A stretch of DNA of 64,000 nucleotides. Origin: Candidatus Eiseniibacteriota bacterium. Its GTDB lineage: Bacteria; Eisenbacteria; RBG-16-71-46; CAIMUX01; VGJL01. The stretch spans positions 1,920,001-1,984,000 of the forward strand of contig CAWBWI010000001.1 of the NCBI GenBank assembly GCA_963792585.1, written 5' to 3'. Below are positions 4,324-26,352 of this stretch, piece after piece (the stretch's first letter is position 1; every line of letters starts with the position of its first letter). The translations under genes were made by a program, and so were the position numbers. Under the pieces are notes generated by a model. It was not told the DNA's origin. It ran no database searches and worked only from the letters and a program-made list of their open reading frames with translations.

Positions 4324-4554
4324 ATGGTGAACCACATTCCAACCTACCAAGAGACGATCCGCCAGATCCTCGATCGCAAGCGGATCACGGGAATCGAACC
4401 CGCCCACGTGGAGGCGTTCATGCGCGTCTACGTGGGGACGCTGGACGGACTGGATCGCAGGCGATTCACACGCCTCGCGATGGATGCTGTCGAGGAGATC
4501 CGCGGATGCGAACCCGATGTCGTGGCCAGCGTGGCCGCGTCGTACGGGCTGTAG
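4324..4554 (+). CDS. Small hypothetical protein
   Basis: GGAGG RBS; 9 nt after previous stop. Confidence 0.65.
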   Translation: MVNHIPTYQETIRQILDRKRITGIEPAHVEAFMRVYVGTLDGLDRRRFTRLAMDAVEEIRGCEPDVVASVAASYGL

Positions 4555-4566
4555 AGGAGGGAGACC

Positions 4567-7847: not shown

Positions 7848-7946
7848 GTGGGGTGCCCGGCAGGTAGGAACGAAACAGGCGCTATGGGTTGCCGGAGCAA
7901 CACCCACAACGCCTTCCGCTTTGCGGCCGGGTCGCTGTCTGGTGAT
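7848..7946 (-). ncRNA. Candidate structured cis-regulatory RNA, copy 1
   Basis: 7897-7946 is 49/50 identical to 13141-13190; stem AGGCGTTGTGG/CCATAGCGCCT with GTTGC-TCCG-GCAAC cap. Confidence 0.55.
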
Positions 7947-8147
7947 CTCTCACCTCGCGTGACCTCCCACGCGACAGCAAGACGTGTACCCCGGCGTTGC
8001 ACCAGTGTCAAGCCTGCCGGAGGCGGACCAAGCTGGGCAGCACACAGGCGCGTCCTGACCCTGTACACATCAGATCGTCGGGACAATTCACTTCAGCCGC
8101 TGTGAGACTCGCACGGGCCCGCTGACCTCGCGCCACCGTCGAATCCG

Positions 8148-10186: not shown

Positions 10187-10277
10187 CGTTCGAGGACTTC
10201 TCCTGTAGTCGGGCGTTTCGCAGGCACACGATCGACTGGCCTCGCCTCACGAACGGCGATTGCCGGGCGCACTGCCA

Positions 10278-10791
10278 TCATACGAACATTTGTTCGTTCT
10301 GACTAGGACGGAGTTCTTCGGTAGGTCGGCGTGTTTGGATCACGGAAACCGGAGCCGAGAGACGACCGCTGAGCAGCCTCCGCTGCACCTCCCAGTCGAC
10401 CGCTGCCACAACAGGCCGAAAAAGCCGCTCTGTCACCTCGTCTCGCCCAGTGACGCGCGGCAGGAACAGGATCTCCTCCTGGATTTCCGGTGCCAGGTTC
10501 AGCAGATCCATGATCTGGGAGACGCGCGCCTTGCTGACGCCCCCGAGGCGAGCGATGTCCACGTAGTCGCGCACGATCCCCTTCCGGATCAGGCCGTCGA
10601 AGTGGATCGCGAGAGCCATGAGTCGGGAGATCCGCGGGATGCGGCCCGGCTCGACGGGCTTGGCGCTTCGGGACGGTCCCTGTGCGCATCCGTCGCCGTC
10701 CCCGATTCCCTCTCCGAAAGTGGACATCGAACTCCACCGTCGCGCCCACACACGCGCCCGTGTGCGCGCCTGGAGCCGCCTGTCGCGCCAC
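10278..10791 (-). pseudogene. Serine-recombinase-associated HTH protein, one frameshift near 10670
   Basis: VEFDVHFRRGNRGR in one frame continues as RIPRISRLMALAIHFDGLI...IARLGGVSKARVSQIMDLLNLAPEIQE in another. Confidence 0.7.
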
Positions 10792-12373
10792 TATCCCACC
10801 TCCTGGGCCAGAACCTTGATCCCGCCCGGCCGGAACGTCACGGCGACCGTCTCCTGCGCGCCGTCGTAGGCGACCCGCTCGACGAGCAGGTGGACGACGC
10901 GGGCTTGCTCTCTGGGCGAGAGGGTGTCCCAGATCGGCTCGAAGCTCGCGAGGGCCGTCACCAGGTCCGCTTCGTCCACGCGGTCCCGCTCCAGCGCGGC
11001 CTCCTGAGCGTGGATCTCCGCGAGCCGCTGCTCGGCGACCGTGATCCGCTCCTGCAGGTCCGCCAGGCGTGCGGTGGTCGACACCTTGCCTCTGCCCTGC
11101 GCTGACGTACCGACCAGTCGCTTCACCTCGGCTGCGGATCGCCTGAGATCCCGCCTCCAGTTCGCGGCGCTCCGCGGCCAGGCGGTCGGCCTGCTCCTGG
11201 GTGGCGGCCCGCGCCTGCTTGAGCACCTCGGCCTGGAGCTTCGGGTCCGTCCCGATCGCCCGAACGCGGTCGACCACGAACTTCTCGATCTCCCCGGCCG
11301 GGAGCGACTTCGTCGGGCAGGTGTCCCATCCCTGCTTCTGCGCCCGGCCGCAGACGTAGTACCGGTACCGGCGCTCGCCGCGCTGGGAGTAGGTGTGCGT
11401 CATCGCAGCGTCGCAGGGTGCGCACCGGAGCAGCCCCCGCAGCAGCGCCCCGTGCTGGTTCCGGATCGCCCGTCCACCAGCTCGGCCGTTGCGCCGCAGG
11501 AGCCGTCTGGACGCGCTCCCAGATGGCCTCGTCCACGATCGCCGTCGTGCTCGCCCGGGTAGACCGTGCCCCGGTGGTCGACCTTCCCGACGTAGGTCGG
11601 GCTCGTCAGCAGGTGGAAGAGCGTGTTCTTCTCGAACGGCGTGCCGCCTCGCGCCTTGCCCTTCTTGGTGACCCACGCCTTCGTCGTCCACCGCCGGCGG
11701 TTCAGCTCCCGGAGGGTCTCCGTGAGGGACTCCTTCTCGACGTACAGGTCGAAGATCGCCCGGACCCGCTCGGCCTCGGCCTCGTTGACGACGATTCGCC
11801 CGCCCTGGGGGTCGACGTCGTAGCCCAGGACCGGCACGCCGCCCGACCCACTTGCCCTTCCGGCGGGCGGCGGCCATCTTGTCCCGCGTCCGCTCGGCGA
11901 TGATCTCCCGCTCGAACTGGGCGAAGGACAGCAGGACGTTCAGCATCAGCCGGCCCATCGAGGTCGCCGTGTTGAACTGCTGGGTGACGGAGACGAAGGA
12001 GACCCGGTGCTTGTCGAGGACCTCCATGATCCGGGCGAAGTCGAGCAGGGACCGGGACAGGCGGTCGACCTTGTAGACGACCACGCAGTCGACCCGCCCC
12101 GCCTCGATGTCGGCCATGAGCCGCTTCAGCGCCGGCCGGTCCATGTTGCCGCCGGTGAAGCCGCCGTCGTCGTAGGGGTCGGGCAGGCAGACCCAGCCCT
12201 CGTGCTTCTGGCACGCGATGTACGCCTCGGCGGCCTCCCGCTGGGCGTCGAGGGAGTTGAACTCCTGGTCGAGGCCCTCCTCGGTGGACTTGCGGGTGTA
12301 GATGGCGCAGCGGGTCGTGCGTGGGCTTGGTCGCGTCAGCCTGCCCCTTACTGGATCGAGAACGGCGGATCAT
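10791..12373 (-). pseudogene. Large serine recombinase (resolvase + recombinase + zinc ribbon), multiple frameshifts
   Basis: RCAIYTRKST catalytic motif, YDDGGFTGGNMDRPAL, VYKVDRLSRS, PVLGY, LLRCAPC, YRYYVC; domains split over several frames. Confidence 0.9.
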
Positions 12374-12855
12374 CGCGTCGTCTCCCTTGCCGGTCAGCCC
12401 GAAGAAGAGCAACCCATTCCAGTGCGAGCCCGTCACCGCCTTCGCCACCGCCGTCAGCGACCGGTAGACCGCTGCCCTCGTACTCGAAGCCTTCGTCGAG
12501 CACCGTGACCGCGATGGTGCGACCCCGGTACTCGCGGGTCAGCACCGCCCCCGGCATGGGCAGGCGTCGGTCGTGCGTCGGCGTGAACGACCCGACCACG
12601 GTGCGGCCCACGCCTGTCTTCGGCGCAACCAGCCGCAGGTCGGACTCGTTGGCCAGCTCCTCGGCACGGCGCAGGGCACGCTCCGACAGCCCGCCGTGCT
12701 CGTTCGCCTGCAGCCGCCACGCGATGCGCTTGCGGAGGAAATCCTTGTGCCGGGACGTGGTCGGCTCGCCGAAGGCCTGCTGCGTACGCCTCCCGCAGCT
12801 CCGCGACGGTCATGTCCCGGAGCGCCTCGATCTGCTTGGCGAGCGCCTGCTTCAT
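12370..12855 (-). pseudogene. DUF2924 domain protein, frameshifted
   Basis: LRKRIAWRLQ, PGAVLTREYRG, GFEYEG, SLTAVAKAVTGSHWNGLLFFGL across three frames; usual position upstream of a serine recombinase. Confidence 0.8.
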
Positions 12856-13047
12856 GATGCAGCCTCCATCGGTCCCGACTCTCCGTCGGTCAACCCACAC
12901 AAGGGCATCGGTCCGCCGGAACAGTCCAGGGGATTCTCGGTGAACGGATCGGGTCTTGAGGCGCAGGTAGCCTGCTGCCAGGATCGCGGCCACCTCGCCC
13001 AGCCGTTGCTCCGCCGTCATCTCCTCGGGGTCGTCCAGGAAGTCCAT
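12856..13047 (-). CDS. Small hypothetical protein upstream of DUF2924 (3' end uncertain)
   Basis: MTAEQRLGEVAAILAAGYLRL; GGAGG RBS; reads in frame into DUF2924 as assembled. Confidence 0.55.
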
Positions 13048-13082
13048 GCTTCCTCCGTGACCCGGCGCTGCTTCAGATGTTC

Positions 13083-13190
13083 GTGGGGGTTGCGCTCAGG
13101 CGGGTGGGAACGAAAACGACGTCGTGGTTCCGTTGCCTTCGCAACACCCACAACGCCTTCCGCTTTGCGGCCGGGCCGCTGTCTGGTGAT
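13083..13190 (-). ncRNA. Candidate structured cis-regulatory RNA, copy 2
   Basis: Same 50-nt block as 7897-7946; stem GGCGTTGTGG/CCACGACGTC with GTTGC-GAAG-GCAAC cap. Confidence 0.55.
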
Positions 13191-13395
13191 ATGTCTGATC
13201 GCGGTGCGTTCACCGCCTGAGTTCAGTTTCTACACGTGCACCGATGCTCCGTCAACTACGAACTTTCCAACGCGCCGAGATCACCGTGCGGACGATCGTG
13301 AAGTGCATGGCGGCGAGCCTATCAACAGTCGGACGCTAGCTACAACTCGGGCAATACGGCGGCGGATTGTACGAGGCACACCTGTTAGGCATTTG

Positions 13396-14580
13396 CTAGA
13401 ACGGTATGTCTTCATCATCTGGAACATCGTCCTTGGTTGGAGAGGACAAGAAGGGAGAGCCGTCATCGAGCACAACAGCTGGATTCCCTGGGTCCGTCTC
13501 GTCTTGGAGCGCGACAGCGAGCGCAGTTTGCCAGGCAGGCGGATACGTCCTGATGATCAAGACAATAGCCTGACGTAGGTGATCATCCCCACCCCTGATT
13601 GCGTTGGCGATCGCCCTGACGCAGCGATCCATCCGGGCCCCGGTGGGGAGCACGTCAGGAAGTTGGCGCATGAAGTATCTCGCCACATAGGCACGACCGT
13701 CTTCATCGCTGCCCTCCAATTTCTCAAGAAGAACCTCCGCTGCCTGGATTCGATTCGTAAAGGCGCGTAGCAATGTGTTCGCCCATGTAGCCACTGGGCT
13801 AGTCGTCCTCCCACGGGAGCTGAATTTGCCTGATCGAATGTCCGCTATCAACTTGTTCTCAATCCGGAGCCGCGCAACTTCGGACAGACCCGACCATACA
13901 TCTGGTGAGAGCATCTGCAACGCGGTCCGGATTGCCCCCTCATCAGTGGTCGCGCGAAGGTCCTCGGACACCACGGTTAGGTAGTTTCTGAGCTGACCAT
14001 CGGAAAGCTGAGCGAGAAGGCCGGCAATGAGGAATCGCAGCTTCCGCAGGTCTCCGCGTTGCCTATTCCGAAATAGCGCGATAATGGCCTCTCCTCGCTT
14101 CTGGACCGGGATTTCGGCTACGAGAAGATCTGCATATCTGGGCGATTCCACAAACTCGGGATCGAGGGCACGATTCATGAAGCCCCCGGGAGTGAACGCC
14201 GATTCAGAGACATCTATGATGCGCAGGATGTAGCCAAGAAAGTAGAGTACTGCGTCGGCTGTGTCCTTCGTGTCTACGACTGGCGCGTGACTTCGAGGAT
14301 TGCGAATACCTAGATAGATGCCACGGAGGATTTGCTCCATGCCCTTCTGAACGTTCCGGTCAGATTCTGTCTGCAGGGTATTCAACCGGAGTTTGGGAGC
14401 GTCGCCCCCCAGAGCCAGTCCAACGAGAGCAACTCCATCGCCATCCACCCCGGCCTTCTCCCGTAAAGTCGCACTCAAGAGATGAATGCCCTCGAGGATT
14501 GCGTGGGAATAGTTATTGGATTCATATGGACCCATGACAACTGCCCATAACCCGGCTGGGATATGAGTTTGAAGGTTCAC
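13396..14580 (-). CDS. Cassette 10: TIGR02391/Ymh-like (HEPN-type) N-terminal domain plus helical-repeat C-terminus
   Basis: DGVALVGLAL, TESDRNVQKG, IRNPRSH (Rx4H); GCCTAAC 5 nt after the stop. Confidence 0.8.
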   Translation of the reverse strand: MNLQTHIPAGLWAVVMGPYESNNYSHAILEGIHLLSATLREKAGVDGDGVALVGLALGGDAPKLRLNTLQTESDRNVQKGMEQILRGIYLGIRNPRSHAPVVDTKDTADAVLYFLGYILRIIDVSESAFTPGGFMNRALDPEFVESPRYADLLVAEIPVQKRGEAIIALFRNRQRGDLRKLRFLIAGLLAQLSDGQLRNYLTVVSEDLRATTDEGAIRTALQMLSPDVWSGLSEVARLRIENKLIADIRSGKFSSRGRTTSPVATWANTLLRAFTNRIQAAEVLLEKLEGSDEDGRAYVARYFMRQLPDVLPTGARMDRCVRAIANAIRGGDDHLRQAIVLIIRTYPPAWQTALAVALQDETDPGNPAVVLDDGSPFLSSPTKDDVPDDEDIPF

Positions 14581-14608
14581 CTTGGGTATCGCCTCCTCTG
14601 CTGACCAG

Positions 14609-14739
14609 TCCCGACGTTCCCATCACCTGCGGACTGAACCCGGTGCGGCCCGGCCAGCCTCGCGTGATGGTCTTGCGTTCTATGCTTCTCTCCCAGGACC
14701 GTGACGGGCCAGCGCCGGAGGTGGATCCGGCGGTTCGAC
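14609..14739 (-). repeat. attC-like site (131 bp)
   Basis: R'' GTCGAAC, ATCCACCT...GCAGGTGATG, R' GTCGGGA. Confidence 0.8.
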
Positions 14740-14757
14740 TGCATACGGCGCATATTC

Positions 14758-15348
14758 CTACTCGTTTCCTCCTGCTTCGGACTGACCGTCAAGGTAAGCA
14801 CCTATTCCAGCCTGTATCCCGTCGAGGATGCGGGCACCACAAGCGAAGAGCTCGGAGAACCTTCTGACATTGACAAGCTTCATGTCGGATGGGAGCGATT
14901 GTAGCCCTGACCGATCTACGGGGTACCTGAAGGAGAAGGACCCGGAGTCCAACTCCCCGATTTGAGCAACAATCGAATCAAGCTCGAAGAGTTCGGCGGG
15001 ATCGCCGGTAGGCCAGACCCTCAGGACAAGGGGGCGAAGTTCTCGCCAAAGCTCAGATACATCATGGTGACGGTGCTGCTTCTCAGGAACCTTCAGCAAG
15101 GCCTGCGCATCAAGCAGGGTACGTTTTAGTTGCAGTTCGAGGTAGTGGCGGGAAAGAAACACGATCGGGTAGAGGAGAATGTCAAGGTCGCCGCTATTCT
15201 CCTCTGCGTAGCTCGTAAGGACTTCTGCAGCACGAGAGTAGCCGCTGATGTATGGACCCCACTGATCATGCGTGAACTGCAGGCATGCATTGTGCTCCCA
15301 ATCGACGTCCAGTCGGAACAACCGCATGTCATCGCCCATTTCAGGCAC
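14758..15348 (-). CDS. Cassette 9: HEPN-like protein
   Basis: YPIVFLSRHYLELQLK, HDVSELW, DSGSFSFRYP. Confidence 0.65.
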   Translation of the reverse strand: MPEMGDDMRLFRLDVDWEHNACLQFTHDQWGPYISGYSRAAEVLTSYAEENSGDLDILLYPIVFLSRHYLELQLKRTLLDAQALLKVPEKQHRHHDVSELWRELRPLVLRVWPTGDPAELFELDSIVAQIGELDSGSFSFRYPVDRSGLQSLPSDMKLVNVRRFSELFACGARILDGIQAGIGAYLDGQSEAGGNE

Positions 15349-15366
15349 GGGGCAGCCTCCTGGTCA

Positions 15367-15497
15367 GGCGAACGTTCGGATCACCTGCGTCCCGATGCCG
15401 GCGCGGCTCCGGCAGCCCGAGGTGATGGACTTGCCTGCTATGCTCGTCCGCCGGTGCCGTGACGGCCCGTCGCGTCAGGTGGGGGCAGCAGTTATGT
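15367..15497 (-). repeat. attC-like site (131 bp)
   Basis: R'' ACATAAC contains the upstream gene's TAA; CACCTGACG...CGCAGGTGA; R' GTTCGCC. Confidence 0.85.
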
Positions 15498-16235
15498 CGT
15501 GGGCATTGCACGTGCAGCCTCGCGATCATCGACGACGCGCAGCAAGTGACTGGCGAGTTGCAGCAGTTCAACGGCTTGCGCAGGGTCGGTGATCGAAACA
15601 CGACGATGGCTTCCTGGGTTCTTGAAGCGTCCGATTGCTCCGGCGAAGAGATCCTGGAGGGCTTGCCGTTCGGCAGCAGGCTCGGATTGCTCCGAAAGTG
15701 GCCCTGACTGGGCATTGAAAGCCCTTCGCATCAGGTCCACGCCGAGAACTGTTGCGTCATAGCCGCCGACCTCGCGCACGCGAACCTCTACAAGCTTGAA
15801 GGACTGAAAGACAGCGGACTCGTAATCGCCAAGTAGAAACGTCGGATAGGCACGCTCCAAAATGAGGGCATGGATCGAGGATTTTGGAAACACGGAGGCG
15901 TATTGGAAACTCTTGTAGTCGTTCTCGGTACGAAGCTGCTCACCTCGGCGCGTTATGAAGAACCAACCGTTGGTGGCGTCGTCAGGATGAGGCGCGATTA
16001 GTACCTCGCGTTCGAGGTGGGCCCAGGCTTCCATTAGAGCCAGTTGAATGCGCACCTGATGCGTGGGCGGATATCCGAGCTGCCCAGCTTCGATGGCGAA
16101 GTTGTGGCGGTTGAACTTGCTACTACGTGAGTGAATGAGCCAGCGAAGGACATATCCTGCTAATTCCTCTGGTGGAAGGGCCAGCAAGTCCTCGGGGTCT
16201 GGAACGAGTTGTCTCAAGTCCATTGGTGTTACCAT
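15492..16235 (-). CDS. Cassette 8: TIGR02391 family protein (wHTH-like N-terminus plus Ymh-like C-terminus)
   Basis: LMEAWAHLERE, YESAVFQSFKLVEVRVRE, GVDLMRRAF, LFAGAIGRFKNPGSHR. Confidence 0.8.
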   Translation of the reverse strand: MVTPMDLRQLVPDPEDLLALPPEELAGYVLRWLIHSRSSKFNRHNFAIEAGQLGYPPTHQVRIQLALMEAWAHLEREVLIAPHPDDATNGWFFITRRGEQLRTENDYKSFQYASVFPKSSIHALILERAYPTFLLGDYESAVFQSFKLVEVRVREVGGYDATVLGVDLMRRAFNAQSGPLSEQSEPAAERQALQDLFAGAIGRFKNPGSHRRVSITDPAQAVELLQLASHLLRVVDDREAARAMPTT

Positions 16236-16364
16236 ATTCTGTTCGAATCCCCCGCGTCCTGACCCCGGCACGGCCCCAGCTGCCCGTCACACTGATCCCG
16301 CCTTTCATGCTCCCCTGCCGGGGCCGTGACGGGCCAGCGCGAGAGGTGGGGGCGGCCGTTGGAT
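16233..16364 (-). repeat. attC-like site (degenerate R')
   Basis: R'' ATCCAAC; conserved GCGCTGGCCCGTCACGGCCCC block. Confidence 0.75.
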
Positions 16365-16377
16365 TGATCGATCCCTT

Positions 16378-16929
16378 TCATAGGATCCCTGACCACAAAG
16401 CGATCCACGATTTCAGGGGTTCCGCTTTGTTCTCGAAGTGATCATAGACAAGCCACTCATCATCTCGACCCTCGAGCCGCCCCCAAACGATGCGTTGATA
16501 GAGTCCCAAGTACTCGCGCTCAGCCCAATCCAATCCCGGCTTGTCGGACGCGGGGAAGAGAGCCACATGCCGCGCTGTTTGGGCCCCATCCGCAAGGCCG
16601 AGTTCCCATGGAATCCACCGACTGTCCACCGTGTTGGGAGTGAGAAAGAGAACAAAGCGGGAACACTCCTTGATGGTGCTCTTTAGAATTTCCGCTGTCT
16701 TCGGAGAAGGTTCTTTCGGAAGCCGGAGATCGAAAGCATCAACGTAAACCGATGCTCCATGACTCTCCAAAATCTCGATCACCCCGCCAAGGTGTAGGAG
16801 GTCCTGTGCCGAGTGGGAGAGAAATAGAGATTTCCCAGCCGCAGATCGGGAGGCCTCCGTATACGCCTTTGCGACGTCGATCCGCGCGCCTTGTTGGCGA
16901 AGCTCGTCGAATGTTGCGTACCGTGGCAT
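16378..16929 (-). CDS. Cassette 7: stand-alone TIR domain protein
   Basis: LFLSHS, VYVD, SRWIPWELGLA with the conserved catalytic Glu. Confidence 0.85.
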   Translation of the reverse strand: MPRYATFDELRQQGARIDVAKAYTEASRSAAGKSLFLSHSAQDLLHLGGVIEILESHGASVYVDAFDLRLPKEPSPKTAEILKSTIKECSRFVLFLTPNTVDSRWIPWELGLADGAQTARHVALFPASDKPGLDWAEREYLGLYQRIVWGRLEGRDDEWLVYDHFENKAEPLKSWIALWSGIL

Positions 16930-16942
16930 GTTCGCCTACTTC

Positions 16943-17069
16943 ATCCTAAAATGCACCTGCGGCCTGAGCCCGGCGCACCCCTTGCCCCCCATCGCGCCGC
17001 TCCGGCCTTCCATGCTTCTCTGCCGGGGCCTTGACGGCCCAGCGCGTCAGGTGAATGCGGCAGTTGGAC
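16943..17069 (-). repeat. attC-like site (127 bp)
   Basis: R'' GTCCAAC, CATTCACCTGACG...GCAGGTGCAT; short deletion before R'. Confidence 0.8.
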
Positions 17070-17084
17070 CACGACACCATGGAG

Positions 17085-17948
17085 CTATCTCCTGCTGGCC
17101 TGTCGGTTGAGTAAGGCGAGCATGCTGTCGGCACCCACCGCAATGCGCTCAACGGTTCCGTCCTTTGTGAGAGCGACACCAAGAGGGATTCCATGTCGGT
17201 ATACTCGGAAACGCTGCGCTAGCTCACCGAGCCAGCCTCCTCCCCAATACTGCTCACCCGGGGGGCGTTCCTGCGCCAGCCAGGTAGGGAGGGTATGGCA
17301 CTCAGCGTCTAGGTTTATGCCGATCACGCGGACTCCTTGCAGGTTGACCGCCAACGATGGCGACTGATTCAGCCTGGCGATGAAGCGTTTGCATGGGCCG
17401 CACCAACTGGCCCAGAAATAGATGAATTTTGGACGCTCAGCACTGAGGGAAAGTCGAAGATCTGCGCAGGCGGGAGAGGAGACCTGTGCTGCAGTGGCTG
17501 TTTCTCCGACGAGCCAGGGATCGAGCTCCAGCAAAGGAACGACCTGATAGCCTGTCGAATCCGGGTTGAGGACATATCTCGTGTCTGCGCCTGCGGCAAT
17601 GTCAGCCATTCGCATGCGTTGGACGACGACAGCGAGTTGGAGCGATTCGCGCCCGATGGTGACGCGAACCGTGGATGGCTTCGACGAGAGAAGGTACCCG
17701 AGCACGCGATCCAGTGGCCACCCTCGGACCGAGAGACCATCAAGTGCAAGCAGAGAGTCTCCGGGAAGCATGCCCGCTCGATCAGCAGGACCGTTGGGAA
17801 TGGGTCGAAGCACAATGACGCCCGTGGTGCTGTCCGCTTGTCCGAGAACCGCGCCGATCCCGAAACGGTCAGGGGTGAAGTCCTCAGCCACAGCGGACTT
17901 CGAAGAGACTGCCAGTAGAGCAGCCACCCATAGCATCAGAGTCGCCAT
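17085..17948 (-). CDS. Cassette 6: exported PDZ plus TlpA-like thioredoxin protein
   Basis: Signal peptide; FGIGAVL...GPADRAGMLPGD PDZ; FWASWCGPCK. Confidence 0.75.
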   Translation of the reverse strand: MATLMLWVAALLAVSSKSAVAEDFTPDRFGIGAVLGQADSTTGVIVLRPIPNGPADRAGMLPGDSLLALDGLSVRGWPLDRVLGYLLSSKPSTVRVTIGRESLQLAVVVQRMRMADIAAGADTRYVLNPDSTGYQVVPLLELDPWLVGETATAAQVSSPACADLRLSLSAERPKFIYFWASWCGPCKRFIARLNQSPSLAVNLQGVRVIGINLDAECHTLPTWLAQERPPGEQYWGGGWLGELAQRFRVYRHGIPLGVALTKDGTVERIAVGADSMLALLNRQASRR

Positions 17949-17992
17949 CCTCAAACCAGACGGAAGCAAACAGAGCCAGCGGCTCAAAGCTG

Positions 17993-18123
17993 GGCCAACG
18001 TTCGCGTCACCTGCGGGCGATGACCGGCGCGGACCTGGCAGCCCGGGGTGATGGTCTTGCCTTCCAGTACTTCTCTGCAGGGCCGTGACGGCCCAGCGCG
18101 GGAAGTGAAGCCGGCAGCTAGCC
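17993..18123 (-). repeat. attC-like site (131 bp)
   Basis: R'' GGCTAGC 1 nt after the stop; GCAGGTGACGCGAAC then R' GTTGGCC. Confidence 0.8.
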
Positions 18124-18124
18124 A

Positions 18125-18967
18125 TCAGTGAATACAGCCTAACCATAGCCGACCGAGTGCAGACTCCACCGCCTGGCGCAGCGGGGCTTCGGATTCAGGA
18201 GCAATCTGCACGCCCCAGCCTAGCAGAACGGGGTTTTGGCAAAAGTCGATCGGGTCATCTCTCAGCGGGTCCAGGACGACGGGATCACATCGCGGATCGT
18301 ATGATTGGCCGTTGCAGACTACTGGTCGCGTAAGAAGGGCGTAACGCAGAGACATGAGCAGGGACCAGCTCAAAGTGGCCTCGGTGCCCTCCTCGTACCC
18401 GGTGTCGGGCCCACCAATATCGACCATCTTGTTGTCTCCAGTAAGAGACTCTTTGATGATCTGGCCAAAGCAATGGGCCACTGCGTCGGCGACTTGGATG
18501 CCGACGCGGACACGGGAGTCCGCACCCGCATCTATTCGACTCTCCGCCAAGTAAGAGAACAGGCATCGCAGCCTCGCCGCCTCGGCGGACGACGAGAAGA
18601 TGCCCTGGTCGAAGACGAGAGCCGTGTTGGACGGGTCGATCCCATTGCGAACGAATGTGGATTGCACAGCCTGCAAGGCCTGTCGGCCTAGACGCGCCCG
18701 ACTGAAAGGCCCAAAGAAGACTGCCACGCTGGCGCGGCTGGCGGCGAGCCCCAGTAGGCGGCTTCTTGCGTCACGCATGCGCGGGTCGGAATCCATGCGA
18801 GCGCCACTCTTGAACTCTTCTCGTGGTGGGTCTAGGCCCGCTTCCCTCAATGCAAGTGTCACACGATCTTCAAACTCATCATCGGCGAAAACGAAAGCGG
18901 TGACAACGACGCCTAGTGAGTCGTAGATGCTCTCGTCTACAAAGCATTGAGTAGCGTTGGGCTTCAT
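18125..18967 (-). CDS. Cassette 5: DUF3800-like protein
   Basis: N-terminal FVDES, EFKS, VFDQG, IQVADAVA. Confidence 0.7.
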   Translation of the reverse strand: MKPNATQCFVDESIYDSLGVVVTAFVFADDEFEDRVTLALREAGLDPPREEFKSGARMDSDPRMRDARSRLLGLAASRASVAVFFGPFSRARLGRQALQAVQSTFVRNGIDPSNTALVFDQGIFSSSAEAARLRCLFSYLAESRIDAGADSRVRVGIQVADAVAHCFGQIIKESLTGDNKMVDIGGPDTGYEEGTEATLSWSLLMSLRYALLTRPVVCNGQSYDPRCDPVVLDPLRDDPIDFCQNPVLLGWGVQIAPESEAPLRQAVESALGRLWLGCIH

Positions 18968-18980
18968 CTTACCTCTGCTG

Positions 18981-19108
18981 CCATAAGGTTGCCCTTCGAG
19001 TCGCCTTCGGACCAAGCCGCGCGCAGCCCGGGGCGATGATCTTGCCCCATCCGGCATCCTACCGAGGCCGGGACGGCCCAGCGCGTCAGGTGAATGCGAC
19101 TGTTGGCC
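18981..19108 (-). repeat. attC-like site (128 bp)
   Basis: R'' GGCCAAC, CATTCACCTGACGCGCTGGGCCGTC; degenerate 3' arm. Confidence 0.75.
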
Positions 19109-19133
19109 GGGTCTTTCGTCGCGGAGGTCGGCG

Positions 19134-19355
19134 TCAATCCCGCTTCTCCTCAAGGTGAACCCCGCAGGTCTCCAACGCAGCTATGCGGCGACGGAGATCA
19201 CCGATCCGCAAGTCATTGCGCTCATGCAGGCCCGTGACCAACATGAGAAGCCCAGCGACGCTGCCGACGACATTTGTCCGGAAGCCGCAGAAAATGACCA
19301 TCCCGACACCGAGGACAATCAACACCGTGGAGATCGGCCACATGACACGGTTCAT
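19134..19355 (-). CDS. Cassette 4: small two-TM membrane protein
   Basis: AGGAGGAG RBS; two hydrophobic helices. Confidence 0.65.
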   Translation of the reverse strand: MNRVMWPISTVLIVLGVGMVIFCGFRTNVVGSVAGLLMLVTGLHERNDLRIGDLRRRIAALETCGVHLEEKRD

Positions 19356-19372
19356 TTTCTCCTCCTAGGTTC

Positions 19373-19488
19373 GTCCAAGGTTCACGACCTCCTGCGCCTC
19401 GGCCATCCCATCGCGCCGCTCCCGCCTTCCATGCCGCTCTGCCAGGGCCGTGACGGCCCAGCGCGGGAGGTGGGGGCGGCTGCTATAG
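19373..19488 (-). repeat. attC-like site (116 bp, internally deleted)
   Basis: Conserved GCGCTGGGCCGTCACGGCCCTGGCAGAG block; shares an internal variant with the 16943-17069 copy. Confidence 0.7.
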
Positions 19489-19500
19489 ATCATCCGGACC

Positions 19501-19989
19501 TCAGTCGCCCAGACCGCCCATGCCAGAAAACGCACGACCAATGATGTAGATGATCGTGGCGTCGACGACCAACCCTATCCCAAACCCAATCAGAACGACA
19601 TGAGGTGAAGATTTCATCTCCACCCACTCCACCCGCGTCGATGGAATTGAATGTGACTGCCAGCCCGTGCGAAGCAGCACCGCTTCATGGCTGGAACTGT
19701 CGGGCGACTCTGTGGGAATGGCGAGAAGCCTAGAGAATCCCTGGAATCGTCCGGTTACGGCCAACGTGTCGCGCTGTTTGATGATCACTGGCGCGCCCGG
19801 TTCTACTCGGTCCAATGATCTTACATCGCCTCTAGTTTTCCTATCCCTTGCAGCCTCATGCATATGCGCGACACTCGCACCGATCAAGGAGCAGCCGGAG
19901 TTCCCTGAAGCAAGACCGAACACCGGGAGTAGGACTGCCAGCCGCGAGATGCACCGGACTCTGCTGCCGACGGAGTCGATCGTCCGCAT
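19501..19989 (-). CDS. Cassette 3: exported or lipoprotein-like membrane protein
   Basis: Hydrophobic N-terminus with SGCS; C-terminal TM GFGIGLVVD; ATG lies within the R' core GTCATGC. Confidence 0.55.
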   Translation of the reverse strand: MRTIDSVGSRVRCISRLAVLLPVFGLASGNSGCSLIGASVAHMHEAARDRKTRGDVRSLDRVEPGAPVIIKQRDTLAVTGRFQGFSRLLAIPTESPDSSSHEAVLLRTGWQSHSIPSTRVEWVEMKSSPHVVLIGFGIGLVVDATIIYIIGRAFSGMGGLGD

Positions 19990-20116
19990 GACGGTTGCGT
20001 GACCTGCAACCCGAGGTTGCCGCATCCCTGGCAGCCCGAGGCGATAATCAGACTTTCTATGCTCCCCTGTCAGGGCCGTGATGGCCCAGCGCGTCAGGTG
20101 AATGCAGTAGTTACAC
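19986..20116 (-). repeat. attC-like site (131 bp)
   Basis: R'' GTGTAAC, CATTCACCTGACG...TGCAGGTCAC, R' GTCATGC. Confidence 0.8.
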
Positions 20117-20222
20117 AGCACGATGCGTACGCCCTCCGATGCGCCCCGTTACTTTGGGGCGCTGTAGGCGGTTTGCCACCTATTCGTGAGCTGATAGGTT
20201 AGAATCGGTCCTCCAACAAGTG

Positions 20223-20696
20223 TCAGTACTGAGAAGATCGCCACATCGCGACCGCTCGGGGAGTCGAAGCAGGGACCGTCGCAAACCTGGGTCGGCTCCT
20301 TTTCGCCAAAACCGCGACCGCCACGGAGCCGAGCACAATGCCCACTGGGATCCCGACGCCAAAGATCGCGAGCTTCGAAGGTGGGCGCTTCGTCCGGACT
20401 GCTATCAGTTGAGCGTCAGTCCGAATAGGCGACTCAGGCCAGATGGTGAGCAGGGATTCCGAGAGCTGCCATGTTCGTGGACGGTGCGAGAACTCCGACT
20501 TGAGACCACCGGCCTCGGAGAGGAATCGCAGTTCAAGGTGCTTTGCGTCACAGATCTTGTTCTGTGCAGTCTGCCCGATGCCTGAGAGCCGGTACGTCTG
20601 ACAGCGCGTGGAGTCAACTCCCGCAGTGTCCTTGGCCATTGCCTCCGAGGCACCGGCAGTAAGAAGAATCGAGATCCCCATGAACGCAAGCGTCAT
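20223..20696 (-). CDS. Cassette 2: exported protein with C-terminal TM
   Basis: Signal-like N-terminus; TM AIFGVGIPVGIVLGSVAVAVL. Confidence 0.5.
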   Translation of the reverse strand: MTLAFMGISILLTAGASEAMAKDTAGVDSTRCQTYRLSGIGQTAQNKICDAKHLELRFLSEAGGLKSEFSHRPRTWQLSESLLTIWPESPIRTDAQLIAVRTKRPPSKLAIFGVGIPVGIVLGSVAVAVLAKRSRPRFATVPASTPRAVAMWRSSQY

Positions 20697-20713
20697 GAAT
20701 GTGGCGATAGTCG

Positions 20714-20844
20714 GTGTAGCGATTGCATCAGCCGCGCGCTGACCCCGGCGCGGCCATGGCAGCCCGGGGTGATGGTCCGAGCTTCTATGCTTCTCTTCCA
20801 GGGCCGTGATGGGCCAGCGCGGGAGGGGGATGCGGCAGTCAGAC
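20714..20844 (-). repeat. attC-like site (131 bp)
   Basis: R'' GTCTGAC contains the upstream TGA stop; R' GCTACAC. Confidence 0.8.
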
Positions 20845-21603
20845 CCGCGTCGTTGTATCGTCATCAGGTTGCTCCGGCTCGAACTTGAACACGTTTGATC
20901 CGATCGTGTGACCCGACTCCCGACTCAACTGGACCTTCTCAAGAAACCGCCCGAGAGCCCTCGGACCGAAGGTCTTCATCCGGTGAATCTCCTGCGGTGA
21001 GAAGAGAGGTTCAGATAGAAGTGGGTCTGCGTATCCAGGGGGAAACCGAAGGAAACGGTAGAGGACGGCGATTGAGCGTGTGTCCAGTGGGGCTCTTGTG
21101 TTTCTTCCCCAGGCGAAGACATCGTCGGGATGCTCAGCAAAGTAGGTTTCCGGGAAGCCGTCGTCACTAGGTTGGAGAAGGCTGTGGAATCGTAACCTCC
21201 AGTCAATGAGCCTCTCCTCGTACACTCTTCGGTGGCTGGTTTCGAGGATCTCCTTGCTCAGTGCCTCGGATGCCTTCAAGAAGCGAGCCGCTGCAATCCA
21301 GTTCTCCCTGCGATTCGGAGGGGACGTTGACGCATCGCCTTGCGTGAGCACTTGGAATGCCCGTTCGAGGAGCTCCAGGCAATTGTCGAGGTAGTCTCGG
21401 GATCGAGCTCTGGCCAGGTTGAGAAGCAACGCTACAAGGGCGACACAGGCACCCGAGAGGACACCAAGGCCACCGAGGAGTGGCAGAACATCAGGAAGCC
21501 CAGCTCCCCCAGCGAACATGAAGATGACTAACGCAAGGATGAGCAGTCCAGCGAGCGCCAAAACGACGGTAGAGCCCCAAAGAAAACGTGAGAGCGTTTT
21601 CAT
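20839..21603 (-). CDS. Cassette 1: two-TM protein with helical cytoplasmic domain
   Basis: Two N-terminal TM helices; PPNRRENWIAAARFL. Confidence 0.7.
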   Translation of the reverse strand: MKTLSRFLWGSTVVLALAGLLILALVIFMFAGGAGLPDVLPLLGGLGVLSGACVALVALLLNLARARSRDYLDNCLELLERAFQVLTQGDASTSPPNRRENWIAAARFLKASEALSKEILETSHRRVYEERLIDWRLRFHSLLQPSDDGFPETYFAEHPDDVFAWGRNTRAPLDTRSIAVLYRFLRFPPGYADPLLSEPLFSPQEIHRMKTFGPRALGRFLEKVQLSRESGHTIGSNVFKFEPEQPDDDTTTRV

Positions 21604-21607
21604 GTCA

Positions 21608-21672
21608 ATCTGACGTTTGCCTCCCCCGACTTCGATGACGGGCGCGGCCCTGGCAGCCCGGGGCGATGGTCT
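21608..21672 (-). repeat. Partial attC-like site (3' half only)
   Basis: GACCATCGCCCCGGGCTGCCAGGGCCGCGCCCGTCATCG...AAC then GTCAGAT matches the 3' half of the family; the 5' half is absent. Confidence 0.7.
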
Positions 21673-21916
21673 AGGATTGCGGGGGGAGAGAAGGCTTGTC
21701 CAGCCCACTCGGGGCCGGACCGGAGCTCGAATCGGCTTGGCCACACGCGGCTCATCCTTCGTCCTCGCCTGGCTGGGTTATCTCGTTCGAGGTGGACACC
21801 TCGGGCACGCACGGAGTCGGGCCAGGCGCATCTATGGTAGCGCGAGAGGGGCGTCTTCGCAATGCGGACGAGGTATCCAGGAGAGACGACCGCCAGCCGA
21901 CTGAACCACCGCGCCC

Positions 21917-24034
21917 TCAACGGCCGAGGATGACTATTCTCCCCGTCCGGACCACTCCGGCTGTGAGCATGCGGACGAGGTAGACGCCTGCTGGGAGGGG
22001 TCGCCCGCTGCCATCGCTACCGTCCCAATCGACTGAATGCCGTCCTGCAGAGTGAGGCCCGAGCGAGAATCGGCGCACCACGCGGCCAGTGGCGTCGTAG
22101 ACTTCGAGATCAACGCCTGTCGCGGCCCGCGGCAGTTCATAGGTGAGAAGAGCAGGACCACCGCTCGGGTTGGGGGACGCGCTGACCGGCGAACCGGCCG
22201 CATCCTCTCCGGGCTCGCCGGCGAGGGCCAGCCTGCCCGGACAAGGGCCCCTCATCTCCGATGGGGGCGGAGCCACTATGGTGACATCTCGGGAGACCGC
22301 ATAGCTCCCGTTCCAGACGCTCGCGGCTATGGCCACGAAGTCGCCGTTCGGCTCCGGAATGTTGCACTCGCCTCGATCATTCGATCCCCACGCCACCATC
22401 GATCCGTCCACCATCAGACCGAGGCTGTGAGCACCTCCGCCAGCGATTGCCGTGAAGTGCGCGTTCGGCTCCGGAATGTCACATTGCCCATCGCTGTTAC
22501 TCCCCCATGCTACAATCGATCCATCCGCCTTTAGACCGAGGCTGTGGCCGCCTCCACCTGTGACCGCGATGAACCCGGTGTTCGGGGCCGGTACGTTGCA
22601 CTGACCCACCGAATTCTCCCCCCAGGCGATGATCGATCCGTTCCTCCTCAAGGCCAGGCTGTGCCACGCGCCTGCCGCGATCGCGATGAAGTCCTGGCTG
22701 GAATCCGGCACGTCGCACTGATGGAAGACATTGTTGCCCCATGCAAAGACGCGTCCATCCGACGTCAAACCCAGGCTGTGATCCTCGCCGGCATCGACGG
22801 CGACGAACCCCGTGTTGGGAGCAGGTGGATTGCATTGGTGATTGTAGTTGTACCCCCATCCGATGATCGAGCTATCGGACCGGATGGCGAGGCTATGATC
22901 TCCGCCCGCCGCAATTCCGATCGGGTCGTGCAGACCTTGTGGCACGTTGCACTGACCGTAGCCATTGTCACCCCAGGCGACGACCGTCCCATCGCGGCGA
23001 ACGCCGAGGCAGTGAGATCCGTGGCCCGTTACTGTCCGAAAGCCGGAGTTGGGAGCGGGCACGCGGTGACCCCAACCGGCTCCACCCCATGCCATAATCG
23101 ATCCGGGGGCGCGGGGTGCGCAGGTTGCCGAGAGGCAATCCGTCCCGATTCCCTGCCAGATCCCCGGCGAGTCGCATTCGGCGATCGTCGTCATCGTGCA
23201 GCTCCCGTCCGGAGAGCAGCACGCGCCGTCCGTGCAGGTGTTGAGGTCGCACGCAATTCCGGTCCCCTGCCACGCACCTCCCTGGTCGCTGCACTCGGTC
23301 TCGCTGATGATCCTGCACAGTCCGTGTTGGAGGCAGCATGCCCCTCCGGCATTGGTCAGGGGCCCGGAGAACTCCTGGCTTGCATCATATGCGACCCCAT
23401 CATCACCGAACGTCCAATCCGGATAGCCGAAGTAGGCGCTCCGGAACATGCTGTCGCATTCCTTGACGCTGACGGCCGCAAGCCGCCCTGCCTGGGGCGG
23501 GAAGCCGTGGTCGCGGAACTGCGCGCAGAACCAGTAGCGGACGCCGGGGACGAAGGTCAGCTCGACGGGGACGCTCCACTCGTAAACCGGGTACCATCCG
23601 CCCTGACAGCCTACGAACTCCTCGCGATAATCCGTGACCACGAAGCTCGCGATCAGCTCGCCAGGTCTGCAATTCGCATCCTCGAAGAACTCGAAATTGA
23701 AACCTGGCGTCGGGATCCCCGGATCGCACGCAACGGAGTTGTTATAGTAGCCGCCCCAGAACGTAACGCGTGTCACCAGACTGTCGCTCAAGATGAAGTC
23801 GTTGGCGATCTCCGTCTCGAGCCCAAACTGCAGGATCTGCTCGCTCGAGCCGATCAATCCCCATAGATCGGGAGGATCGGACCAGAGGACGTTTCGGGCT
23901 TCCCTCGCGAGTGGATGCGGCACCCCCAATCCAGGATGGAAAGGGGAAAGCGGTGGTTGGTTCGCCGGTCCCTTTGCAGAAGTCCCGCCGACAACTGCGA
24001 CGATCAGTAGCAACGCGAGTCCGATGGATTTCAC
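21917..24034 (-). CDS. Secreted RCC1-repeat protein with Cys-rich modules and C-terminal FlgD-Ig domain
   Basis: Signal peptide; GACC modules; about 6 AAGxxHSLxLxxDGxIxAWGxNxxGQC repeats; PNPS...WDGSDGSGRPLPAGVY. Confidence 0.85.
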   Translation of the reverse strand: MKSIGLALLLIVAVVGGTSAKGPANQPPLSPFHPGLGVPHPLAREARNVLWSDPPDLWGLIGSSEQILQFGLETEIANDFILSDSLVTRVTFWGGYYNNSVACDPGIPTPGFNFEFFEDANCRPGELIASFVVTDYREEFVGCQGGWYPVYEWSVPVELTFVPGVRYWFCAQFRDHGFPPQAGRLAAVSVKECDSMFRSAYFGYPDWTFGDDGVAYDASQEFSGPLTNAGGACCLQHGLCRIISETECSDQGGAWQGTGIACDLNTCTDGACCSPDGSCTMTTIAECDSPGIWQGIGTDCLSATCAPRAPGSIMAWGGAGWGHRVPAPNSGFRTVTGHGSHCLGVRRDGTVVAWGDNGYGQCNVPQGLHDPIGIAAGGDHSLAIRSDSSIIGWGYNYNHQCNPPAPNTGFVAVDAGEDHSLGLTSDGRVFAWGNNVFHQCDVPDSSQDFIAIAAGAWHSLALRRNGSIIAWGENSVGQCNVPAPNTGFIAVTGGGGHSLGLKADGSIVAWGSNSDGQCDIPEPNAHFTAIAGGGAHSLGLMVDGSMVAWGSNDRGECNIPEPNGDFVAIAASVWNGSYAVSRDVTIVAPPPSEMRGPCPGRLALAGEPGEDAAGSPVSASPNPSGGPALLTYELPRAATGVDLEVYDATGRVVRRFSLGPHSAGRHSVDWDGSDGSGRPLPAGVYLVRMLTAGVVRTGRIVILGR

Positions 24035-24191
24035 TTGCAGGCCTCCTTCGGGGGTCTCGGGAACTCAATCCCTCGCACGATCGCGATTCCGCCTTGGATA
24101 TCGGCCGGGGGTATGGCTGCATCGACCACGCCGATCGTCTGGCGGATCGGCATGTGGAAGCAAGCAAGACGGCCTATCGCTCTCCCTAGCA

Positions 24192-25490
24192 TCACCGGAA
24201 GCTGCTCTTGATCCGCCCCCAGGTGGTCGGCTGAACCGGCGTCGGCTCGCACGGATTCGGGTCGCAGGTGGTGCCGTTCCCCATGTAGTTTCCTCCCTGC
24301 TCGCCGCACGCTGACTGTCCAAGGACGAGGCACGATCCATCCACGAAGCAGCACGCGCCAGTCGGTGGCGTTCCGCAGCCTTGGCCCCGGGCACCGATCA
24401 GGCCGCAGTCGACGCCGTCAGGGTGGTTGCCAGGGAGACACGGCGACTGGCCGTCCAGGGTGTAGCCATCGTTCGCGGCATCGCAGAAGAGCGGGTCGGC
24501 CGAGATGTTGCCGCCAAGGTCATTGCCACAGACTGCGTTTCCGGTGGTATTCCCGTAGAAGTCACAGCAGCGGACCGTGACTGTTCCAGAACACTCCAAA
24601 GCCGAACCCTCGTGGAAGGCGATGATGATCCTGTTGAGGCCGATGTTCGAATCGATGATGGAAACCGCAGCGTTCTCACTCGTAAGCGCGTTTCTTGCCA
24701 CCGTACAGCCCGAGATCGTACCGGAGCTGAGCACGACAGTGAGACTGGTGATGCCGCCCCACCAATCGTTCCGGTTGTCGACGAACAGACAGTCCTCGAT
24801 GGTCAGCGCGGGCGTATGGACGAGGAGTCCCGCAGGATTACCGAATCCTGCGATGTTCCTGGCGAAGACGCAGCGCAGGATGGTCACCTCCGGCCCATCC
24901 GCCCACATCGCCAACCTGTCGTTGTCAGTGACGACGGTGTCGGTCATGGTGAGCCTGCATCCGCTTGGAGCCCAGATCCCCCCTCCTTGATAGGCCGTGC
25001 AGTTCCGAACCGTGCATCCCTCAATCAAAATCGTTGAGTTCTGGACAAGGATGCCGCCTCCGCTTGCGCTCGCGCTGCAGTCCTCGATGAGGCAGTCACG
25101 GATTGTCATCCGGGAGTCGCGGCACCGGAGTCCTCCTCCCTCTCGATCCTCGTACTCACCCGACTCGACCAATCCATGAACGATCCTGAATCCCTCGATG
25201 ATCGCATCCTGTTGGAGGCCAGCCGAATCGAATCCCCGACCGGCTGACGCTGCATCGACGGTCGTGGCTTCTGCCCCTTGCTCGCTGTGAACCCAGATCC
25301 CGGCCTTCATGACGATATCGTGCTCGAGATACTCCCCCGGCGCGACCAGCACATCATCTCCTGCTGAAGCCGCGTTGATCCCTGCCTGGATGGTGGGAGC
25401 ATCCCCCGGAACGTGCCAGGTGGCTCCGGCAGCGGGAACCGTGATCACGAGCGTGAGACACATGCAGGGCAGGGTCGGTAAGCGTTTCAT
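24192..25490 (-). CDS. Secreted right-handed beta-helix protein
   Basis: VPGDAPTIQAGINAASAGDDVLVAPGEY, GGG repeats, NISADPLFC, C-terminal TTWGRIKSSFR. Confidence 0.85.
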   Translation of the reverse strand: MKRLPTLPCMCLTLVITVPAAGATWHVPGDAPTIQAGINAASAGDDVLVAPGEYLEHDIVMKAGIWVHSEQGAEATTVDAASAGRGFDSAGLQQDAIIEGFRIVHGLVESGEYEDREGGGLRCRDSRMTIRDCLIEDCSASASGGGILVQNSTILIEGCTVRNCTAYQGGGIWAPSGCRLTMTDTVVTDNDRLAMWADGPEVTILRCVFARNIAGFGNPAGLLVHTPALTIEDCLFVDNRNDWWGGITSLTVVLSSGTISGCTVARNALTSENAAVSIIDSNIGLNRIIIAFHEGSALECSGTVTVRCCDFYGNTTGNAVCGNDLGGNISADPLFCDAANDGYTLDGQSPCLPGNHPDGVDCGLIGARGQGCGTPPTGACCFVDGSCLVLGQSACGEQGGNYMGNGTTCDPNPCEPTPVQPTTWGRIKSSFR

Positions 25491-26061
25491 CTGAGTCCTC
25501 CCAGGGAGGTACATTCCGCGAAAACCCCTTCGTCCGCACAGATTCGCGCCGTTCTCATGATACGCTCGACAGCCTCATTGGAACACTTCTATCGGCTCGG
25601 CTAATCTTCCACCGGACGGTCGTCAGCGATATCGTGCTCCCCCTTGCCGCGTAAGCAGTGGGGTGCTCCCGCGGCCTGCGAGTCCGGTCGGGCAAAAGCT
25701 GGTGGGTCATCACCAGCCGCGACCCTCGTCTGTGTCCGGCATCCCCACCTTCGCTCGCCTTGGGGTAGTCCGCGACCCCGTCCCCTGCAATCCCCGCGCG
25801 CCTGCACCCACGCCCGGCATGTCGCGATCGCATGGGCGTTCACCATGAGAACGCAGTTTCGTGAAGCGTGCGCTCTGGTACCCCGGAGCGAACCGCGTCG
25901 TTCACCACTGCGGGGGAGAGAATCAAGAAGGAGAGAGTTTCGGCCTCTCACGCCCCGTTTCGTGGCGGTTCCCACCGGTTGCACTCGACACACTTTCGAA
26001 ATAGAGAATCAGCTTCGCGGCGACGTCGTCGCAACACGCTCGCGTTTCTGCGGATATAGAC

Positions 26062-26091
26062 GAGCCCCGATGGCATACACCACCGAGGCTC
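26062..26091 (-). terminator. Strong hairpin, terminator-like (weak U tract)
   Basis: 12-bp stem GAGCCTCGGTGG/CCATCGGGGCTC; two pairs are G-U only on the minus strand. Confidence 0.45.
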
Positions 26092-26352
26092 CGTCAACCG
26101 CTCTCGGCACGATAAGCTCGTAGCCTGGTTGTCTGGCTCCCCGCTCCTACCGCGAACCTGGACCCTTCCGGTGAACGCTCCAGACTTGCATCATGGCTTC
26201 AGAACGATGTCCTTCCTCGCTCTCTCCCGATTGCGCAGAACAGAATCACCACCAAGTCCATTGATCATTGATCCATGTGCGTGCTCAGGCGTTCAAGGGT
26301 GATCGTCTGTCCCTCCGGCAACGCCGCACCGCAGACAAGGGCCACGCCCCGT

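Follow-up and report, generated by a model that had tools for sequence, protein, structure and literature searches.

A cassette array with decayed attC sites and no integrase of its own behind a putative attI-like platform in a Candidatus Eiseniibacteriota genome

Cassette arrays that stand apart from an integrase gene have been described as attC-site clusters that lack integron-integrases (CALINs; Cury et al. 2016, PMC4889954). The stretch studied here, 64,000 nucleotides of a Candidatus Eiseniibacteriota genome (contig CAWBWI010000001.1, positions 1,920,001 to 1,984,000; G000:C1:1920001-1984000 in our numbering of genomes and contigs, hereafter the window), carries an array of ten minus-strand open reading frames (ORFs), standing singly and alternating with nine full repeats and one half repeat. 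We identify this array as a CALIN with decayed attC sites, a satellite of a sedentary integron on contig C6 of the same genome. The account that we favour, to which we give a probability of roughly 65%, is that the CALIN was loaded at a stray copy of a promoter-leader-attI-like module (module H), that its sites then decayed, and that an open frame through the sites acts as a translational relay.

As CALINs are described in passages of PMC4889954, the window array shares with them at least two attC sites, the absence of a nearby intI, an IntI encoded elsewhere in the genome (reported there for half of CALINs) and an edge resembling an insertion sequence (IS). It differs in that nine full sites are more than is usual (fewer than six sites in 83% of cases in those passages) and in that it is headed by a recognisable module present in eight copies, whereas a split-off CALIN is treated there as cut off from the cassette promoter (Pc). 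The likeness to a sedentary integron lies not in the window but in the C6 locus, with its co-directional intI, 42 homogeneous attC sites, duplicated cassettes and far-end decay; between intI and platform C6 has a PemK/MazF-type gene pair, and the related genome G004 a PIN-type pair. Cassettes placed by IntI away from an integron are also a feature of attG sites and single attC sites lacking integron-integrases (SALINs), according to parts of a preprint (bioRxiv 2022.09.11.507474), but the target here appears to be a repeated attI-like module rather than diverse genomic sites. The first unpaired base of the bottom strand is A in the present family, as opposed to G16 in VCR2 and attCoxa2 in the relevant part of PMC5027507.

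For class 1 integrons, sections of PMC8876359 describe ORF-11 and ORF-17 at attI1 and short ORFs in attC sites; the system described here shares with them a leader ORF over the attI crossover and an attC ORF suited to termination-reinitiation. A passage of PMC11511950 counts attC ORFs among exceptions that "seem to remain anecdotal". In the present genome, by comparison, the attC ORFs are family-wide, with a 39-codon core, one frame for attI and attC, and a deficit of stop codons. Nothing is new about CALINs, mobilisation in trans, co-directional integrases, ORF-11 or attC ORFs taken singly; what differs here is their systematic combination. Within the literature searched, which left most subscription journals outside its scope, no paper contained both "integron" and "Eisenbacteria", and among the papers listed none was on attI-headed CALINs or array-wide attC frames.

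The attC family and the decay of its window copies

A family profile made from the nine window copies found 58 copies in the genome at E<1e-5. They form five groups. The largest, with 42 copies, spans C6:621500-667779, the window holds 10, and 2, 3 and 1 copies lie at C1:1.880-1.881 Mb, C1:267-269 kb and C3:1030 kb, respectively. All 58 lie at ORF ends and none is scattered, contradicting the possibility, raised in a first-pass annotation of this DNA, that copies occur genome-wide without relation to ORF ends. The bottom strand of 37 copies (36 of the 42 C6 copies and the C3 copy) folds alike, in the order R box, spacer, L box, stem, and leaves an A and a T unpaired, and the consensus fold of the family also has an unpaired central spacer and a variable terminal loop; the minus-strand consensus and two unpaired bases proposed in that annotation agree with this fold. 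Paired positions are complementary in 97.4% of cells (28-39% in slid controls). The covariation that the annotation had asked for is present as 41 double changes (0/500 shuffles), in a test that is inflated by the relatedness of the copies. Among the first 35 C6 copies, the AAC and GTT triplets of the inverted R boxes are both present in 34, and the bottom strand is lower in energy in all.

Further evidence comes from the cassette ends. The start of each cassette was compared at positions 4-11 with the cassette's own end rather than with the R'' that now adjoins it. On C6 the match was 5.98 when taken within cassettes, against 3.38 in place and 3.33 after shuffling (0/20,000); in the window it was 4.0 of 8, 2.67 and 2.55, respectively (4/20,000). 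Ends that match within cassettes are the mark left by circular cassette intermediates. The window sites belong to the same family as those of the 42-site C6 integron, and the ten units of the array show this end match. The proposal of attC architecture and a cassette array is supported, and the window array is almost certainly an attC cassette array.

It is very improbable that the repeat is an intergenic element unrelated to integrons, such as a repetitive extragenic palindrome, a miniature inverted-repeat transposable element or a mycobacterial interspersed repetitive unit (MIRU). MIRUs are likewise intergenic, with a small ORF coupled to both neighbours, which the open frame of the present repeat resembles, and the window copies fail to fold; however, MIRUs are not integrase recombination sites. 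Moreover, 42 of the 58 copies lie behind an IntI with none scattered, and the C6 copies have R boxes, unpaired bases, a bottom-strand preference and within-cassette end matches.

The layout of the array was recovered by a covariance model trained on 37 copies outside the window. Run on positions 1-40000 of the window, the model found all ten places, with no other match at E<0.05 barring weak reverse-strand echoes. E-values were below 1e-7 for eight places, 2.7e-4 for the half copy and 0.22 for the 116-bp copy. The strict alternation of repeats and single ORFs reported earlier is borne out. The reported length of exactly 131 bp was correct but the count of five such copies was too low, with six by the covariance model and a seventh by alignment. 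Likewise, the array does hold ten genes, nine of them followed by an attC site and none encoding an integrase, but the tenth cassette has in place of a full site only a lone R'' followed by the 5' end of an IS-like element. A stop codon inside R'', given as a general feature in the first-pass annotation, occurs in 2 of the 10 cassettes (at 15492 and 20839). The G+C content of the array is 59.2%, compared with 62-66% for the contigs. A Rfam scan of window positions 10000-26000 and five platform loci gave no relevant match.

The hairpins of the window copies have decayed. Against 30 dinucleotide shuffles each, the folding z-scores of these copies range from +0.4 to -1.3, whereas on C6 the first 35 copies reach -3.6 to -10.5; the R/L stem previously ascribed to the window copies folds no better than shuffles. 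The bottom strand of the window copies is lower in energy in 4 of the 9, and triplets are intact for AAC in 6, for GTT in 2 and for both in 1. The combination of intact triplets and a folding bottom strand that characterises functional attC sites is absent from them. The window copies sit on long branches, and mismatches to the consensus amount to 0.198 at paired and 0.267 at unpaired positions, compared with 0.013 and 0.111 in 25 C6 copies of type A. What had been taken for a diverged attC family is instead a decay of the hairpin. Contigs of three public runs (X1-X3) cover parts of the array and differ from it by 3-10%, and the divergence among window copies (10-40%) is too large to be read error. 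The window array is very probably dead in recombination, or nearly so.

The sedentary integron of this genome (G000:C6:619016-667779) is complete, consisting of a co-directional intI, the PemK/MazF-type pair, a platform and 42 attC sites. These sites fall into three subtypes, several cassettes are duplicated, and the last sites are decayed and more widely spaced. The intI (C6:619076-620020) is the only gene above the TIGR02249 cut-off, scoring 431.9 against 265 bits over the whole model, while the 13 other matches in the genome score below 70 bits. By eye we saw in its product what we take to be the catalytic R-K-H-R-H-Y residues and the IntI-specific insertion. The label of sedentary integron, given to the window array in the first-pass annotation, fits this 42-site array, where intI and attI stand beside the cassettes, and not the window. 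Neither intI nor a remnant was found within 6 kb upstream of any of the eight H copies with 21 IntI queries, in a genome that is 84% complete and could lack a second intI.

An IntI above the cut-off was found in 21 of 30 relatives. Of 20 loci in relatives, intI and attC sites are co-directional in 5 (G001, G013, G021, G024, G025) and divergent in 1 (G022), with 14 uninformative. G004, which belongs to a sister genus in the same family and whose IntI is 72% identical, has the layout of C6, with intI, the PIN-type pair and a platform (L040:9758-10713). In G009 and G017, too, intI is followed by putative addiction-module genes. An Atlas search with a C6 cassette protein gave clusters of Krumholzibacteriota and Eiseniibacteriota, no more than a pointer to the host. 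A wide spread of the attC family was rejected: 9 of 10 exact-pattern matches in GTDB and 2 of 4 in metagenomes were at chance level, and there was none in viral sequences. The remaining GTDB match is a real related site, in line with the lineage restriction proposed earlier. Outside this genome, related sites occur in a Gemmatimonadales genome, where the site is longer, and in metagenome contigs, one with a near-identical site and one with a small array (L074, L091, L094).

Module H at the head of the off-site arrays

Module H is about 260 bp long, with promoter-like boxes, a leader ORF and an attI-like end, and copies of it head all four off-site attC groups. Two of these copies end exactly at the GTT of the first cassette, one is joined to the first gene, and the window copy is joined to the half attC. 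The crossover junction followed by a cassette is seen at the H copies at C1:266.8 kb and C3:1029.2 kb, and this part is missing from the window copy. Boxes of -35/17/-10 type were found by eye. A leader ORF is present in six H copies, and in all four copies with a crossover-like end it crosses the crossover in the same frame as at C6. In the two cassette-heading copies with an intact 3' end, the distance from the -35 box to the crossover is 255 and 262 nt, compared with 263 nt at C6. Contigs in runs X1 and X2 span the junction of H with the half attC, so that it is not an assembly artefact; this half repeat is probably the result of a deletion that joined H to half an attC site.

Global alignment to the C6 platform placed two of five H copies above genomic background (1 and 0 of 1,500 background scores as high), and three H copies stood above background against the intI-linked platform of G004 (1, 1 and 8 of 1,000). 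Judged from these sequence comparisons, H is probably an integron platform of sister Pc-leader-attI type. Several observations weigh against this reading or against loading of the array at H. The boxes of the window copy fall under the cut-off of a promoter scan. Three H copies are not clearly above background against C6 (40, 64 and 75 of 1,500), nor are two H copies and the C6 platform itself against G004 (94, 88 and 39 of 1,000). Behind four of the eight H copies there is no attC of the family, and none of the window cassettes has a close counterpart on C6. Related serine-recombinase islands adjoin both larger satellites, so that transfer as a block is possible.

H might be an unrelated promoter-bearing repeat, with cassettes that entered at attG sites and were kept as lying behind a promoter. 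Insertion at attG behind promoters is documented (Loot et al., in parts of bioRxiv 2022.09.11.507474), H is best conserved in its 5' half, a multi-copy sequence in related populations, and four H copies lack attC. We consider it unlikely, as the length from -35 to crossover, the leader frame and the 3' end agree with two intI-linked platforms, and as attG sites, in the same parts of that preprint, are very numerous and do not resemble attI. In a search for changed first cassettes at the H copy at C1:266 kb, contigs matched only the 5' part of H.

A weightier competitor, which we nevertheless rate well below the favoured account, is that platform and cassettes were moved or duplicated as a block, via the neighbouring islands, out of an earlier second integron whose integrase was lost, with no cassette ever taken up by H where it now lies. 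The window array and the array at C1:267 kb both lie between the same upstream repeat and DUF2924 / serine-recombinase islands that are 81-84% identical. Two H copies also outscore the C6 platform against that of G004 (60.5 and 52 vs 37.5), and passages of Cury et al. (PMC4889954) accept rearrangement and loss of intI as routes to CALINs. However, the first genes behind the H copies are unrelated, no remnant of intI lies upstream of any of them, and the C3 satellite holds a near-intact site of a current C6 subtype. In this satellite, the cassette behind H has matching ends and the site folds well (z -5.2), which we take as the best sign of loading in trans. On balance we lean slightly towards cassettes having been loaded in place at H rather than moved as a block.

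Under the favoured account, the integrase would have acted from a distance and built the array at a stray copy of the module, with H as a Pc-leader-attI platform that received cassettes in trans. A deletion would then have taken the attI end of the window H and one or more cassettes together with the left half of an attC, and an IS-like element would have taken the place of the last attC. With the insertion site lost, the hairpins would have been free to drift in a frozen array.

A role of the H leader as a structured RNA was considered and rejected, as 10 of 10 leaders fold no better than shuffles (z -0.3 to +0.9). Searches for H in 60 relatives gave six short, chance-level matches, and metagenome contigs contained no exact copy; the G004 platform had no second copy in 5 genomes. 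After the second cassette of the C3 satellite lies another attC-like site, shorter and of a different type, which was recognised by eye (L017:6085-6170).

The open frame through the attC sites

From AAC to GTT the attC core measures 117 nt (39 codons) in 49 of 58 aligned copies, and its consensus has no stop in the frame that runs from AAC to GTT, the core frame. The following start-codon and open-frame statistics cover the attC sites of the present genome. After removal of 8 duplicates from 57 cassette ends, the 49 distinct ends were scanned over 10 codons, with matched distances at 5,575 long-ORF stops as background. A start codon in the core frame was found in 39 of the 49, compared with 12 and 8 in the other frames (background 35%), and an ATG in 31, compared with 1 and 5 (background 16.5%). 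In the window, 8 of 9 cassettes have the in-frame start. A ribosome-site-like word precedes 22 of the 39 in-frame starts. Beyond GTT, the same frame overlaps, closely precedes or enters the next gene at 36 of 51 cassette starts, compared with 21 and 18 for the other frames (ATG only). The leader ORFs at the C6 and G004 attI sites lie in this frame as well and stop at the start of the first gene.

Substitutions relative to the subtype consensus introduced no stop in 32 proximal C6 copies, where 4.15 were expected (P 0.009), and in 2 of 18 decayed copies, where 5.8 were expected (P 0.03). This count left out copies whose core length is not divisible by three (1 and 2, respectively) and the three 135-bp copies. 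A naive version of the test (2/49 vs 12-13.7) was discarded as overstated, as subtypes share changes. In the window all nine cores are multiples of three, including the two with deletions, and the junction with H keeps the frame as well.

These sequence patterns suggest that the core frame is an array-wide translational relay. Ribosomes would end a gene, restart at the small start codon and read through the attC before being passed on to the following gene, so that a long transcript would suffer less from polarity. Selection on the sequence of the attC peptide was examined and rejected, with no synonymous bias in any frame (39/106, 40/113 and 41/99); the peptide itself is likely irrelevant.

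There are points against the relay. The stop deficit of the window copies taken separately is not significant (1/9 vs 3.2, P 0.11), and the copies in the stop test are related, which makes the P values optimistic. Three C6 sites of 135 bp break the frame, and cores are divisible by three in just 5 of 15 unrelated attC sites of relatives. In class 1 integrons, a part of the work of Carvalho et al. (PMC11511950) reports that removal of attC seldom altered downstream expression.

Alternatively, the open frame and its starts could be a by-product of cassette making, such as a captured start of the next gene in the source operon, or of shared ancestry. The lack of synonymous bias and the relatedness of the copies fit this explanation, as does the fact that a start at the end of a cassette helps the neighbour and not the cassette itself. 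Capture alone, however, would not hold the frame constant with respect to AAC (36, 3 and 8 ATGs by frame), private substitutions avoid stops, both deletions and the H junction keep the frame, and the attI leaders share it. We regard a by-product as the less probable explanation and hold, with some confidence, that the relay was selected for translation.

Cassette cargo, flanks and significance

The features of the array are listed in Table 1. Six of the ten cassette proteins have no convincing family. No ThsA was found in the array beside the ThsB-like cassette. A 4,717-nt contig of run X1 matches this cassette alone; the match spans attC to attC at 95% identity (35 differences over 666 nt), which suggests that the cassette may have other neighbours in the source of that contig. 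Several window cassettes are without contig cover in runs X1-X3, which does not imply their absence.

Table 1 Features of the cassette array in the window, in order of position.
Feature	Position	Strand	Remarks
5' fragment of rve-type IS-like element	13263-13382	-	where the last attC would be
Lone R'' of cassette 10	13384-13390	-	in-frame ATG before it; rest of attC absent
Cassette 10 gene	13396-14580	-	394 aa; TIGR02391 / HEPN-like N-terminal domain
attC, decayed	14609-14739	-	131 bp
Cassette 9 gene	14758-15348	-	196 aa; 28% identity with a cassette protein of C6
attC	15367-15497	-	131 bp; sole window copy with AAC and GTT both intact; fold no better than shuffles
Cassette 8 gene	15492-16223	-	TIGR02391 / Hypoth_Ymh domain
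attC, decayed	16234-16364	-	131 bp
Cassette 7 gene	16378-16929	-	ThsB-like TIR protein (PADLOC E 1e-55)
attC	16939-17069	-	right end degenerate; relay frame holds a stop, in this window copy only
Cassette 6 gene	17085-17948	-	PDZ and thioredoxin-like domains; in frame with upstream attC frame
attC, decayed	17993-18123	-	131 bp
Cassette 5 gene	18125-18967	-	280 aa; no family
attC	18987-19108	-	122 bp; 9-nt deletion, frame kept
Cassette 4 gene	19134-19355	-	73 aa; hydrophobic
attC	19373-19488	-	116 bp; 15-nt deletion in right arm, frame kept
Cassette 3 gene	19501-19985	-	~160 aa; start uncertain; in frame with upstream attC frame
attC, decayed	19986-20116	-	131 bp
Cassette 2 gene	20223-20696	-	~157 aa; shares the upstream attC frame; has a 32% paralogue at another place on C1
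attC, decayed	20714-20844	-	131 bp
Cassette 1 gene	20839-21603	-	254 aa; N-terminal hydrophobic segments; no family
Leader ORF	21600-21755	-	51 codons, predicted from sequence; from H through half attC in register; stop overlaps start of first cassette gene
attC right half (L', R') joined to module H	~21608-21677	-	covers model positions 62-130 only
Module H, window copy	21641-21874	-	promoter-like -35/17/-10 boxes ~21862-21834; attI-like 3' end missing

The IS-like fragment adjoins a frameshifted DUF2924 / serine-recombinase island, which occupies window positions 147-4929 and 10278-13236, with a small tyrosine recombinase just outside the window. An insertion of this island within the last attC, splitting a single array, was rejected: the sites that lie 52 kb away have their own cassettes, and the IS-like end follows the lone R''. 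The rve-type element also occurs at C1:1880084 and C1:318580, in two of the satellite arrays its 5' end stands immediately behind the last R box, and fragments of it precede H in at least one copy; a preference for integron junctions is possible. A 72-bp direct repeat (88% identical) lies at 7888-7959 and 13132-13203 of the window and at other island ends. Another dispersed non-coding repeat, of about 450 bp (window 25730-26180), matches 19 other places in the genome, in the neighbourhood of genes for secreted proteins, and some contigs join it to H.

On C6, the C-terminal motif TWG-x-x-K/R-x-x-F/Y ends 12 of the first 35 cassette genes, about 9 of them distinct (L011:11014-L012:15777), and none of the ten window cassettes. 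Genome-wide the motif stands at the end of 105 ORFs, and four of the motif-bearing C6 cassette genes encode CHRD-domain proteins. This suggests that these cassettes were made from the host's own pool of secreted proteins, and the motif is a possible handle on how cassettes are made. It is also carried by a protein of ~495 aa in a cassette at L016:7485-8970 (attC at C1:1881477). A similar-looking beta-helix gene at window 24192-25514 has no attC, and a 94.6% identical copy lies at C1:302-304 kb. ARAGORN placed a tRNA-Glu in the distal C6 array (G000:C6:650454-650532), which may be spurious.

A broader and more tentative proposal, which we think would rather fail than hold, is that the integron of this lineage is distributed, with one integrase, several dispersed promoter-attI platforms and one universal open frame at all junctions, such that any order of cassettes would give an unbroken relay. 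A satellite that lost its insertion site would keep the frame while its hairpins decay, and its sites would become translational linkers of a fixed operon.

A decayed CALIN by itself is ordinary. That all four off-site groups start at a promoter-attI-like module bears on the origin and expression of CALINs, and one integrase with several natural targets makes loading in trans directly testable. The family-wide attC ORFs, with their fixed frame and stop deficit, bear on how long cassette arrays escape polarity.

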